Source: Dictyostelium discoideum
Taxonomy: Eukaryota
Length of the DNA stretch: 64,000 bases
Assembly: GCA_000004695.1 (NCBI GenBank)
Contig: CM000151.3
Coordinates: forward strand, 8,224,001-8,288,000
Direction: 5' to 3'
A model generated the notes under the pieces. That model was given only the letters and a program-made list of their open reading frames with translations, did not search any database and was not told the DNA's origin. Position numbers and translations under genes: made by a program. Within the stretch, counting starts at the first letter, position 1, and each line of letters starts with the position of its first letter. Positions 65 through 37,387 of the stretch are shown piece by piece.

Positions 65-152
65 TTTTCCTTAGCAAGTATCGAACTTAGAGACCAATGT
101 GTTACAAATTTTCCTTAGCAAGTATCGAACTTAGAGACTAATGTGTTACAAA
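65..152 (+). repeat. Tandem direct repeat, 2 x 44 bp ('ttttccttagcaagtatcgaacttagagacYaatgtgttacaaa') immediately upstream of the first (degenerate) family copy; 1 mismatch
   Basis: Seen directly: 65-108 and 109-152 are identical except c/t at one position. The unit ends in 'gttacaaaacaaATGGA', resembling the 5' leader of the intact copy at 4640-4655 ('gttgtaaaacaaATGGA'). Confidence 0.8.
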
Positions 153-156
153 ACAA

Positions 157-490
157 ATGGAGGTTCTAGAAATATTATTTTGGAAAGTTTTTAAAAATAA
201 ATATATATTAAAAGAGATATTCAATCAAATTCACAACAATGAATGGATTGAATATGATGAACCAATAAATATAATGTTTACAATAGATGTAAATTAGTGA
301 AGAATTTAAAAGAAAATCATTATCATTAGCAGCACATAGAAAAACTCTTAAAACTACAATCACTGAATACATTTTTAATAATCCATCATTATATTCAATA
401 CCACCATTATCATTAATAAATAATCAAAAACAACAAGAACTATCAACAAATAAAAGATTAAAACTATCTGAAACTATACATTCAAATTTA

Positions 491-549
<59 letters not shown>

Positions 550-2674
550 AGAAATAAAGTATGAATATATTGAATTTAGAGATTTTATGAAATTAAAGTC
601 AAGCAATTTATTAAAATCATTTATGGAATTAGATATAGTTTTAAGTGAAACTGAAACAAATTTTAATCAATTTCTTAAAATGTATCATCCATATGAAAGA
701 TTACAAGTTGGTATTAAAGTTATTCTAAAGTATGATAATACAATTCCAGAAAAAAAAAGAGAAGAAATTTTAGAAGAAATCAATAAAATTGATAGAAAAA
801 ATGAAACAGGTTTTAATAGATTAAAAGAATTGAGAAAATTAGTAGCAATAGAATTCCCAAAGCAAACAAACTTTTATTTCTATTATTGGCAAAGATATCG
901 TGAGAATATTAAAAAACTTGGTAAAGTTCCTAGAAAATGGAATCCTCCAGGTGATAATATTGAAACTTTTGAACATATTATTGTACAAGATGACTTCATT
1001 GAAGATCAAGAAGCCATATATCTAAACCATACCCAAGGTGATGAAAATATAGAACAAGTAGAATTACTATCATATAATTTATATAGATGATTCAAAATGA
1101 GACAATATTTTGTTAAAATATTTTCAATATTGATTTGATCTTTAGTGAGTTTTTTAAACTTGTCTATTATCAATTTAATTATCCTGATTATTTGAAAAAA
1201 ACAAGAATTTTAATATAATGGAATTATTATTAAATAGTGAGTTTTTTAAACTTGTCTATTATCAATTTAATTATCCTGATTATTTGAATTATCCTGATAC
1301 CATCATCAGGTAGCAATTATAATAATAAAAAGTACAAAACTCAATTCGATGCAATATTAAAAGAATTAATTAAACAATTATCACTTGATATTTGTACAAA
1401 CGTGAGTAATAGAGATAGAATTGTTAAGGGTAAAGATTTCTTTAATCATTCATTAAATGTAGATTTAAAATTCAGTTTAGATATTTGTAGAAAAGATTTA
1501 TTTTGGGAATTATTAGATTGGATTCAACAATATATGATTAAAAATGAAAATTTAATGAGCGTCAAGTTTATCTATTCAATTCACCATATGAATCATTATT
1601 ACCAAATGGTACAATATTTTCAAATGTAAATATAATAAAAAAAGAATTACAATCAAAAGAATTAACAACCGAAACAACAGAAGCAGCAATTGAAAGTTCT
1701 TTTTTAAAAATTGATAATTTTGAAAAACCAATACCAAATGAATCAACAATTAAAATTGGTTGGAATTCAGATAAATTAATTGAACCATTCAAACCAATTT
1801 CAAAACTTATAAATTCATTTAAATTTTCAGATGAAGTCATAGTATCAATTTGTAAAGTAATGAATGTAAATGAAATTCAAAGATTTATTCAATATAATTT
1901 CTTTGAATCATTTTTTCAAAATGAAATTTATAAATATTCAGTATTTATGAATAGAGATGATATAATGCCATTCCTATTAAATAATTATAATATTGAAGCT
2001 GATTTCCCATACTTTCATCCAAGCTCAGACTATTCACAATATTTAGAATGTAAATTCATCTTTGAAAATCATTTTGAAAAAGTAAAGAATATTTCAAATC
2101 TCAATCAAAAATGGATCGAAAGTCGTTATTTACAATTCCCATTGATTTTATTAAATTCTTTTTTAAAATACATCTGCAAAGAAAAGAATATCACAACATA
2201 TAATCAATTCATTCAAAATGATAATTTACAAATTAGAAAACAAGTAATTAAAAAAACAATTGAAATACTAATTGGTAGATTCAATCAATTATTGAACAAT
2301 CAGATACTCAAGTATACTTTAAATCAGCTTTGGATCAAGTTTTATTAAAATCAAAAGAAGATAGAAAAAATGATGAAATTAATTCTCCATTCATTGAAAA
2401 TAATAAAAATCCATTCATAGAATCTTTTATTCATGGTGATATTAAAACCTGTGATATCATTCTCAAATATTACCCAAATCAATTCAAAATCACTAAAGAT
2501 TCAATCACTGAAACATTAAAAATGGAAAATATTCATATCATTAAATATTATTATAAAGTTGATAATTGTAAAAATTTAATTAATAATTTTAAAAATGATA
2601 ATAATTTATTAAAACATTTAAAAAATGAATTATCAAAACATCCAATATATAAATACCATTTAACTTGGTTATAA
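157..2674 (+). pseudogene. Degenerate, internally deleted copy of the tandem gene family (N-terminus, middle block and C-terminal third retained, in different frames)
   Basis: The ATG at 157 opens 'MEVLEILFWKVFKNKYILKEIFNQIHNNEWIEYDEP', then the frame breaks. ORFs 587-1090, 1402-1629, 1860-2348 and 2330-2674 match successive, non-contiguous segments of the intact paralogs (e.g. 'MKLKSSNLLKSFMELDIV', 'NRDRIVKGKDFFNHSLN', 'MNVNEIQRFIQYNFFE', '...KHPIYKYHLTWL'). About 2.5 kb instead of ~4 kb, so >1 kb of the middle is missing. An unrelated segment with a 52-bp direct repeat occupies 1091-1330. Confidence 0.75.
1144..1308 (+). repeat. Direct repeat of a ~52-bp unit ('agtgagttttttaaacttgtctattatcaatttaattatcctgattatttga'), two copies plus a partial third, inside the pseudogene
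   Basis: Seen directly: 1144-1195 and 1246-1297 are identical. 'attatcctgat' recurs again at 1298-1308. Confidence 0.75.
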
Positions 2675-34477: not shown

Positions 34478-34562
<85 letters not shown>

Positions 34563-35766
34563 TAAATAATAATGAGATAGAGAATGAAGGAGGGAATATT
34601 CAAGTTGAAAATGAAGGAAATGTTGAAGATATGGATGGTGATGAATTATTAGAGCAATTAGAGACAGTAGTGAATGATGGTGAATCAGATTCTGATAGGG
34701 AATTTAATAATGAAGTTGATGAAGAAAAGGGAGATACAATTACTATTAAAAGAGAATATATTAATAATTTTAATAAATATAAAAAAGAAACAGTTTATAA
34801 TATATCCAATAGATATTCAAATTCTACCAATTTATTTTTGGATTCAATTAGGGAATGTGATATTGAAACCTTAGAAAAGATAGATCAACTCCATAATTTA
34901 GAGTTTAAATTGGATGTTTCAAGATTTCATTATTTTCAATTACCAAAAGAAAGAAAAGATATAATGAAAGTTTGGGAATACTTTAATCATCATGGATTTA
35001 AACAATTTGGGTCAAGTCAAAAAGCTTTTATTGAATTTGTTTCAAGTGTGGCAGATGTGATATCACCACTTTCAGAATTGAAAATAACAAATACTTGTAA
35101 ATCAATCTCTAGAAACTATGATTTTATATTATATAGAACATTATTTAGAAAGAAATTTAATGTTTTCGAATTACTTTTAAGACATTCCACTCTTTCTTGG
35201 TTTCCATTTTTAGAGAATGATCAATTCTTGGAGATTTTAAATCAAGAAAAGGTGATATTCAATCATCAATGTGAAGTGATTCAATTTGATAATAAATATC
35301 TTGATCAAATAATCAGATTAATTGAATTCAGTGTTGGGAAATTTCAATTGGTTGAAAAAGCTAGAGATCATTTATTGGCACAAGGATTTCAAGTTGGTAT
35401 TAGAATTGTAAATTATTTATATGATGAATTAATTAGAATTAAAGGTGTGACAATAGATCAATTAGAATATGTTAGATCAATTATTCCAAAGGAAGCATTA
35501 AATACACCATATGAAATCTATCGAGTTTTCTTTTATCTTAATATCAGATCTCCAAAATTAACAAGATACATAATGTATAGACCTGCAACCATTGAATTCA
35601 TATCAACCTCTGAATTATTTATTAGTCATTATAATTGTAGTGATCCAACAACAATTGATGAAATTGGTTTTGATTTTAAAAAATATTTAAATTTAGATAT
35701 ATTCACATATGATTATATATTAGGTAGAGAGAATATTAGAAATGTTTCTATTAATAGTAGTAGTAT

Positions 35767-35816
<50 letters not shown>

Positions 35817-37279
35817 ATAAAAGATTTATAACTCAATTCGATACAATATTAAAAGAATTAATGAAACAATTATCACATGATATTTGTACAAACATTAGTA
35901 ATAGAGATAATATTGTTCATGGTCAAGATTTCTTTAATCACTCATTAAATGCAGATTTAAGATTTAGTTTAGCTATTGGTAGAAAGGATTTATTTTGGGA
36001 ATTATTAGATTGGATTCAACAATATATAAATAAAAATGAAAATTTAATGAAGTATCAAGTTTATCAATTTAATTCACCATATGAATCATTATTACCAACT
36101 GGTAGTTTATTTTCAAATGTAAAAACAATTATAAAAGAATTACCAACGACAACAACAACAACAACAAGAACAAGAACGACAACAACATCAACAACAACTG
36201 AAACTAAAATATTAAAAATTGATAATTTTGAAAGACCAATACCGAATGAATCAACAATTCAAATTGATTGGAATGAAAATAAATTAATTGGACCATTTAA
36301 ACCAATTCGTAAACTTATAAATTCATTTAAATATATTGATATTGTTATGAATTCAATTTGTAAATTAATGGATGTAAATGAATTTCAAAGATTTATTCAA
36401 TATAATTTCTTTGAATCAGATTTTCAATTTACAATTTATTCATATGCAGTATATAATAATAGAGATGATTTAATGTCATTCCTATTAAATAATTATATTA
36501 TTGAAATTGATAGATTCCCATTCTTTCATCCAGAAAGAGGCTATTCACAATATTTAGAATGTAAATTCATCTTTGAAAATCATTTCGAAAGAGTAAAGAA
36601 TCTTTCAAATTTAACTTTGGAATGGTGTGAAAGAAGAGATTTAGATTTCTCATTCTCTCTATTGAATGATTTTATTAAATATCTTTGTAAAGCAAAGCAT
36701 ATAACAACCTATAATCAGTTTATTCAAGATGATAATTTACAAATTAGAAATAAAATTATTAAAGAAATAATTGAAGAATTAAAGAAACAATATGACTCGA
36801 TCTTAGATGTAGTTGAAGATGAAGATATTAAAAAAGAGAATATCGCATGTCTATTAAAAAATCAAAAACATAAAGTTTCACTCATTCAATCAATTATTGA
36901 ACAACCAGATACTCAATTATACTTTAAATCAACTTTAGAAAAAATTATATTAGAATTAAAAGAGAAAAGAAAAATTAATGAAATTAATTCTCCATTCATT
37001 AAAGATGATCAAAATCCATTCTTGGATTCTTTTATTCATGGTGATATTAAAACTTGTAATATCATTCTCAAATATTATCCAAATCAATTTAAATTCACTA
37101 CAAGTTCAATCACTAAGGCATTAGGATTAGATAAAATTCATATTATTAAATATTTTTATAAAGTTGATAATTGTAAAAATTTAATTAATAATTTTAAAAA
37201 TGATAATAATTTATTAAAACATTTAAAAAATGAATTATTAAAACATCCAGTTTATAAATATCATTTAACTTGGTTATAA
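33035..37279 (+). CDS. Tandem-family paralog F (1414 aa), most divergent intact copy; contains a ~55-residue uninterrupted poly-Asn run and a poly-Ser run
   Basis: The first ATG is at 33035 (the ORF track starts at a TTG at 33029). Poly-N lies at 34430-34570. '(S)n' lies at 35755-35815, at the position where paralog A has its S/G-rich tract. The C-terminus is '...LKHPVYKYHLTWL*'. Confidence 0.7.
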
Positions 37280-37387
37280 AAAACAAATAAAAATAATAAA
37301 AACAAATAAAAACAATTAAAAAATTAAAAATTAACTTTTAAAAATAAAAATAAAATAAAATTCTTTAAAAAGACTGCAAATAACGCT

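Follow-up and report, generated by a model that had tools for sequence, protein, structure and literature searches.

The stretch of DNA analyzed here (the window) comprises 64,000 nucleotides (nt) of chromosome 2 of Dictyostelium discoideum AX4, approximately positions 8,224,001 to 8,288,000. The chromosome is 8.48 Mb long; the window lies ~200 to 260 kb from its right end and has a G+C content ranging from 13 to 28%. Between positions 160 and 37,279 it holds nine copies of one large gene, all on the + strand: six intact open reading frames (ORFs) of 1242 to 1414 amino acids (aa) and three decayed copies, i.e., one-third of the units within the window. A preliminary description of this DNA had listed the six intact ORFs, and its coordinates and strand agree exactly with our ORF list; a tblastn search with one member likewise mapped exactly the three decayed same-strand copies that it had reported. 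The units of the array in the window, with landmarks along copy B, are as follows.

160-2671, + strand: decayed copy (pseudogene 1); tblastn matches to aa 3-48, 216-243, 393-511, and 925-1395 of a full member, in three frames
4651-8523, + strand: intact copy A, 1290 aa, DDB_G0277585; ORF identical to ACTFIT_004909, which is in a 90% cluster with DDB_G0277585
10081-10591, + strand: N-terminal fragment copy; tblastn matches to aa 1-87 and 132-202, with one frameshift
11037-14765, + strand: intact copy B, 1242 aa, DDB_G0277653; 1226 of 1227 aligned residues match the AX4 protein
11037-11321, + strand: N-terminal module of copy B (aa 1-95)
11391-11780, + strand: ankyrin-like stretch of copy B (aa 119-248)
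Copy B, ~aa 438-700, + strand: central domain, divergent and the best folded in the predicted model
Copy B, aa 1199-1242, + strand: C-terminal tail
15430-19617, + strand: intact copy C, 1395 aa, 81-82% identical to copy B, with a ~100-aa Asp/Glu (D/E) linker
19854-22908, + strand: decayed copy D; no start, first ~47 aa missing, frameshifted N terminus, poly-Q insertion, last ~100 aa deleted
23429-27616, + strand: intact copy E, 1395 aa, from the ORF and the alignment
28136-32299, + strand: intact copy F, 1387 aa, a recent duplicate of copy E
33035-37279, + strand: intact copy G, 1414 aa, the final unit of the array

Pseudogene 1 has several frameshifts and two large internal deletions, with ORF fragments at 587-1090, 1860-2348, and 2330-2674; a newer annotation splits it into models of 303 and 422 aa. 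The fragment at 10081-10591 is annotated in AX4 as a 121-aa gene, DDB_G0277623, and the longest ORF of copy D (20422-22908) encodes 828 aa. Copies E and F share 95% amino acid identity, a synonymous divergence (dS) of 0.038, a 633-nt identical run, and their downstream spacer. Apart from this duplication, the spacers between units are mostly unrelated to one another. For copies C, E, F, and G, no protein identical to the ORF product was found in the protein collection. Judged by the sequence, two of the reference gene models look imperfect: the AX4 model of DDB_G0277653 cuts out 45 nt of an in-frame poly-Asn tract as an “intron,” its sole difference from the ORF, and that of DDB_G0277585 begins at an internal Met, giving 1235 aa versus the 1290-aa ORF.

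The window holds only the distal half of the array. Further same-strand units adjoin window position 1 on the upstream side, five of them intact (1327, 1299, 1353, 1363, and 1385 aa) and three decayed (loci L001 and L002). The array thus extends ~33 kb upstream past the window start and totals ~70 kb, with ~17 head-to-tail units, ~11 of them intact. The preliminary description had placed the nine copies correctly, and its extent was incomplete by this upstream portion. DDB_G0277643, a clear family member outside the window, is ~30 kb upstream in the AX4-like assembly. The proximal boundary is marked by a divergent paralog (1299 aa, ~36% identical in the N-terminal region; L001 1-1914 and L003 1319-5218, both on the - strand), which stands head-to-head with the first unit of the array. 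At the distal end, tblastn with one member found no related copy past 37.3 kb of the window. The array as a whole is ~220 kb from the right end of chromosome 2.

The array is real and its genes are not chance ORFs. An alignment of 11 member sequences has a mean column identity of 64%, and it contains all of the conserved blocks that had been quoted for the family, along with the poly-N, D/E, S/G, and T-rich linkers between them. The other two frames of each gene hold 112 to 313 stop codons each, so the open frames are far beyond chance. The copies are 2 to 22% apart in nucleotide sequence, and an independent assembly (GCA_054883475.1) shows the same order, with ORFs of 1290, 131, 1242, 1395, 1387, and 1414 aa. 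An assembly artefact, a possibility that had been raised for this array, is therefore contradicted.

To gauge selection on the ORFs, we simulated the substitutions attributable to a single lineage, placed randomly and drawn from the observed mutation spectrum, and counted the stops that would arise. Without selection, 25 to 30 new stops are expected per deep lineage (probability of no stop, <1e-11), 11 for the B/C split, and 3 for the E/F split. The six intact copies have none, so selection keeps full-length products. The ratio of nonsynonymous to synonymous divergence (dN/dS, or omega), estimated pairwise by the Nei-Gojobori method, is 0.57 to 1.06 among the six intact copies. Since the estimator might be biased in an AT-rich genome, we calibrated it with pseudogene D and with a syntenic control locus in another part of chromosome 2, around DDB_G0274845 (L007 versus L008), comparing the AX4-like assembly with GCA_054859385.1 (“ACTFIR”). 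Copy D gives a dN/dS of 1.0 to 1.2 against copies B and C. Four ordinary genes at the control locus have a dS of 0.07 to 0.19 and a dN/dS of 0.06 to 0.13, and the dispersed family member DDB_G0274845 has a dN/dS of 0.29. Positional orthologs from the array, in the same two assemblies, have a dS of 0.07 to 0.09 and a dN/dS of 0.66 to 0.80, i.e., replacement relative to synonymous change is 6 to 10 times faster in the array than in the control genes. One ortholog window, aa 81-178, has 36 nonsynonymous versus 3 synonymous changes; across the windows, no clear cluster with omega well above 1 was seen. The reading frames are maintained by selection even though constraint on the amino acids is very weak.

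We also considered whether the 87 to 88% identity between array orthologs marks the array as hypervariable. This was rejected because housekeeping genes at the control locus are equally diverged at synonymous sites; we dropped the claim of hypervariability and retain only the elevated dN/dS. The two assemblies, both labelled D. discoideum, differ with a dS of 0.07 to 0.19 in housekeeping genes and by ~5 to 10% in overall nucleotide identity. This is far above the divergence expected within a species, which raises the possibility that ACTFIR represents a cryptic species.

The ends of the genes had been described as extremely conserved. Similarity among the paralogs bears this out, but special constraint on the termini does not follow from it. 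The proportion of synonymous differences (pS) between paralogs is 0.055 in the last 40 codons, 0.09 around “LFWELLDWIQQY...”, and ~0.11 across aa 82-257, versus 0.3 to 0.5 in the center; nonsynonymous divergence among paralogs is likewise low in the conserved blocks. In non-sister copies, nucleotide identity is 82 to 96% in the first 750 nt, 53 to 80% in the center, and 89 to 95% in the last 150 nt, and genes that are 21% diverged overall share identical runs of 108 to 132 nt. Between the two lineages, the proportion of nonsynonymous differences (pN) in orthologs is 0.035 to 0.07 in every window, the same at the termini as in the center. Low pS at the gene ends together with uniform ortholog pN points to concerted evolution rather than exceptional constraint on the terminal modules. 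These patterns suggest that the first ~750 nt and the last ~150 nt are homogenized by gene conversion or unequal exchange, a process that leaves the central domain to diverge. The arrays of the two lineages show mosaic relationships and differ in unit content. By these sequence comparisons, the array turns over by tandem duplication or deletion (the E/F pair and the copy-number differences between lineages) and by pseudogenization (the three decayed copies).

What kind of proteins are these? The preliminary description could assign no Pfam-type domain, and our scans agree. Across 11 members and eight distant paralogs, Pfam gave no robust domain, just marginal ankyrin matches: Ank_2 appears at E ≤ 0.1 in two of the 11 members, the match in copy C scores 28.6 bits against a gathering cut-off of 27.3, and the distant paralogs have either none or 17.4 bits. 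The conserved blocks gave no confident hidden Markov model match to a known housekeeping domain, which had been named as an alternative identity for the family. A comparison of the N-terminal profile with the body profile found no internal repeats, nor do the members show canonical repeat periodicity. When PDB sequences were searched with profiles of the N-terminal, N-terminal plus ankyrin-like, and central/C-terminal regions, no real match was returned, just poly-N sequences or a DARPin at E 0.1. AlphaFold2 models are predicted to be all-alpha, with low confidence. The body model has a mean predicted local distance difference test (pLDDT) score of 53, its well-predicted stretch being ~aa 438-700 of copy B, and the N-terminal model has a mean of 59.5, with short helix pairs at pLDDT 80 to 90. 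Foldseek searches with these models found neither an ankyrin match nor a robust match to any other fold.

Motif and domain scans were negative for several other functions. No signal peptide was found, the N terminus not being hydrophobic in the copies, and there is no conserved transmembrane segment: the maximum 19-residue hydropathy is 1.2 to 1.7, at a position that differs from copy to copy. No copy has a P-loop ([AG]xxxxGK[ST]) or an HExxH motif. The members scanned have no Pfam match to NB-ARC, NACHT, or AAA, nor to TIG or Ig domains. No unit has a Pfam transposase, reverse transcriptase, or integrase domain, though no scan aimed at terminal repeats was made. An F-box, a motif of about 45 aa with the pattern LPxE...W, was considered for the N-terminal “ILFWKVFKNK...” module and rejected: hhalign against an F-box alignment gave a probability of 0.07% over 1 aligned column, and there was no Pfam or PDB match. 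DDB_G0277585 was earlier likened to the InsP3 receptor by I-TASSER (PMC8280847); like the weak ankyrin signal, this is a generic solenoid resemblance. The best description, from the predicted models, is a large soluble intracellular helical-repeat protein with a few degenerate ankyrin-like units and disordered low-complexity linkers.

The family had been called lineage specific and fast evolving, with pseudogenes, and this stands, given the dN/dS of 0.57 to 1.06 and the results of a profile search. We searched the 984-aa body with HMMER, exhaustively, against 1.84 billion cluster representatives (E ≤ 0.001) and found 27 relatives; the source could be retrieved for 26, and all 26 are from D. 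discoideum, “D. cf. discoideum,” or D. dimigraforme. Word-indexed protein searches were erratic, as poly-N words saturate the candidates and the N-terminal profile missed full-length members, so our negative statements are taken from the HMMER search, which was exhaustive. Among the relatives are dispersed, full-length but distant proteins (e.g., DDB_G0274845) that have the N-terminal module and a “...KFDLNWL” C terminus in common with the array, and the N-terminal module alone also occurs in a partial D. purpureum protein. These matches limit the family to D. discoideum and its close relatives, and the large tandem expansion seems to go no further than the D. discoideum complex.

The preliminary description had also presented the family as unrecognized and a candidate for an undescribed system. 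Neither holds. The genes are annotated in AX4, and the dictyBase description, which Kjellin et al. 2019 give in their Additional file 2 (PMC6902447), already records a large family of unknown function, clustered on chromosome 2, to which copy B (DDB_G0277653), copy A (DDB_G0277585), and the fragment (DDB_G0277623) belong. Literature searches by gene ID found no study devoted to the family. No evidence shows a multi-component system. The array is thus an annotated, curator-noted orphan family found again, and no new system is revealed. The present analysis contributes a map of the array and its extent, the finding that the gene ends evolve in concert, calibrated rates, and negative results from the domain and fold searches.

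Published expression data link two members to bacteria. DDB_G0277653 (copy B) has a log2 fold change of +1.61 (false discovery rate, 7.9e-4) 2.5 h after Mycobacterium marinum infection (PMC6902447), and DDB_G0277643 has a logFC of +2.0 (adjusted P, 3.3e-4) on exposure to Bacillus subtilis (PMC7078664 Table S2). Both correspond to ~3- to 4-fold induction. This provides a weak lead for the defence or effector role that had been proposed for the family, a role that is otherwise unsupported.

In all, the locus is a real, selected, expressed, and annotated orphan family. We give a probability of about 0.7 to our overall account of it, a tandem array of selected, fast-evolving genes for soluble all-alpha proteins that are putative intracellular binding adaptors or scaffolds. 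The adaptor or scaffold role is proposed because no enzymatic or nucleotide-binding signature was found. The proteins would most likely bind other proteins inside the cell. Expandable low-complexity linkers join their folded blocks, and the properties specific to each member would be those of the central domain, which is divergent and the best folded; the partners would either change fast or tolerate change. Because bacteria induce two members, the bacterial response is the likeliest setting for this function that we can name, but we rate it as less likely than not.

Several points weigh against this account. With mean pLDDT values of 53 and 59.5, the models are of low confidence, and the label “helical-repeat adaptor” draws mainly on secondary structure and weak matches. 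Nei-Gojobori estimates are rough in a 22% GC genome with recombining paralogs, and if constraint on young, redundant paralogs were relaxed, dN/dS would be expected to be just as high. At the gene ends, selection acting on the nucleotide sequence itself could also keep synonymous divergence low. As for bacteria, induction is limited to two of the ~11 intact members, among hundreds of regulated genes; DDB_G0277653 showed no significant response with Legionella (PMC6902447); reads may cross-map among paralogs; and the family is not listed in the other supplementary datasets searched.

Why, then, do the genes evolve so fast? They may simply be redundant young paralogs under relaxed constraint, with a dosage-tolerant intracellular role, in which case redundancy would account for the high dN/dS with no arms race or bacterial link. 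We regard this as a substantial possibility, if short of even odds. It fits a dN/dS below or near 1 almost everywhere, a B-C pair (1.06) not distinguishable from pseudogene D (1.0 to 1.2), the lack of a clear cluster of windows with omega well above 1, the frequency of pseudogenes, and the stronger constraint on the dispersed single-copy DDB_G0274845 (omega, 0.29). However, the intact copies escaped the 25 to 30 stops expected per deep lineage, which means that each one is maintained in its own right; bacteria induce two members; and the ortholog window at aa 81-178 has its 36 nonsynonymous changes against 3 synonymous. Alternatively, this may be an intracellular defence or pathogen-response family under diversifying selection, whose variable center would recognize changing microbial or selfish-element ligands. 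Lineage specificity, tandem expansion, fast evolution, many pseudogenes, a position near a chromosome end, and induction by M. marinum and B. subtilis are all as such a family would have them. Yet Pfam and motif scans found no signalling, NTPase, TIR, nuclease, or other effector domain; the induction is modest, in two of ~11 members, and DDB_G0277653 did not respond to Legionella; and positive selection is without statistical support. We consider a defence family unlikely, and relaxation somewhat more likely than an arms race as the cause of the rapid evolution. A bolder form of the idea is an uncharacterized class of amoebal intracellular recognition proteins, in which the ends kept alike by conversion would be a common scaffold or signalling interface and the diverging center would bind bacterial, viral, or selfish-element ligands; this is a long shot.

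Two further explanations are highly improbable. One is a cell-surface self/non-self recognition family like tgrB1/tgrC1, self/non-self families being one of the comparisons that had been made for the array. In its favor, the genes are many, polymorphic, and clustered, and tgrR2, which is a Tgr gene, is found 17 kb downstream. The comparison fails on anatomy: there is no signal peptide, conserved hydrophobic segment, or Ig/IPT-TIG domain, and the predicted structure is all-alpha, so that the lack of secretion and membrane signals contradicts a role at the cell surface. The other is that the array is non-functional DNA, i.e., dead ORFs, transposable-element cargo, or an assembly artefact of one gene. 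It is true that one-third of the window's units are decayed, that dN/dS is near 1 for some pairs, and that a DDE_1 transposase gene sits within the array of another lineage. Against this, open frames cannot persist without selection, and transcripts respond to treatments; no unit has a transposase or reverse transcriptase domain, the spacers are mostly unique, and the window lacks the transposase of the ACTFIR lineage. The divergence of the copies, the independent assembly that reproduces the structure, and the stop-codon simulation refute both the artefact and the dead-ORF versions.

The array resembles several known families in part. Ankyrin and other alpha-solenoid (PPR/TPR/ARM-like) binding proteins are one comparison, but most array members fall below the Pfam threshold (two of 11 match), and they lack canonical repeat periodicity and a Foldseek match to ankyrin. 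The Tgr allorecognition family (tgrB1/tgrC1-type) is also a clustered, variable multigene family of the same species, with a member in the window; Tgr proteins are secreted or transmembrane Ig/IPT-TIG proteins, unlike the soluble, all-alpha array proteins. STAND/NLR immune receptors differ in having a central P-loop NTPase domain. The pals genes of Caenorhabditis elegans and the F-box and MATH-BTB expansions are species-specific, clustered, fast-evolving intracellular families; they are like the array in their lineage-restricted clusters, pseudogenes, rapid evolution, and the induction of some members by microbes. They differ in that no sequence relationship was found and that, by hhalign, the array N terminus has no F-box. 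Gene conversion and birth-and-death evolution shape multigene families at chromosome ends, among them Plasmodium var, trypanosome VSG, and the yeast subtelomeric families, all of which encode surface or exported proteins with known roles. The array shares their clustered paralogs, pseudogenes, mosaicism, homogenized ends with divergent cores, and position (~220 kb from the end), whereas its proteins are predicted to be cytosolic. Finally, as in multigene families under concerted evolution, the similarity of the array paralogs extends to synonymous sites and is not mirrored between orthologs.

At ~70 kb of selected coding sequence with no recognizable domain, the array is among the larger “dark matter” blocks of a major model organism. 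If its proteins act in interactions with bacteria, they would be a new kind of component in amoebal cell-autonomous defence. If they prove to be a recognition class, social amoebae would have a lineage-specific, repeat-protein innate immune repertoire that is not homologous to NLR, TIR, or any other known sensor. Even without a bacterial role, the array is a clean and tractable case of birth-and-death evolution and gene conversion in a eukaryotic tandem array.

The remainder of the window is occupied by other genes, as follows.

38203-49784, both strands: ordinary single-copy neighbors after copy G, from ~38.2 kb
Within 38203-49784, + strand: Stealth CR1/CR2 protein
Within 38203-49784, - strand: 186-aa protein and 229-aa protein
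Within 38203-49784, - strand: CNH/Vps39-like protein
Within 38203-49784, - strand: DUF202 protein
Within 38203-49784, - strand: aspartyl protease
53511-56433, + strand: tgrR2 (DDB_G0277627), a true Tgr cell-recognition gene 17 kb downstream of the array; the ORF has a TgrO1-like Ig domain as well as an IPT/TIG domain

A G-quadruplex motif has been published upstream of tgrR2 (DDB_G0277627) at Chr2 8,277,511-8,277,540 (PMC6511855); this promoter motif occurs once in the window, at 53,511-53,540. An ORF at 62817-63698 (293 aa) had zero Pfam matches, and no tRNA genes were found in the window.

The ACTFIR lineage differs from the window in two further respects. A DDE_1 (pogo/Tigger-type) transposase gene lies inside its array (L004 12944-14338 in GCA_054859385.1) and is absent from the window. 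The other concerns the spacers on either side of copy A, at 2675-4650 and 8524-10080, which have ~21% G+C versus 9 to 17% in other spacers. Both are kept in the ACTFIR lineage (L004 19273-20175 and 20898-21860), where they are close together without copy A between them. Since these flanking spacers adjoin there, their sequence suggests a presence/absence polymorphism of copy A or, alternatively, small unrecognized genes. A newer annotation places a 110-aa gene model in this spacer region.

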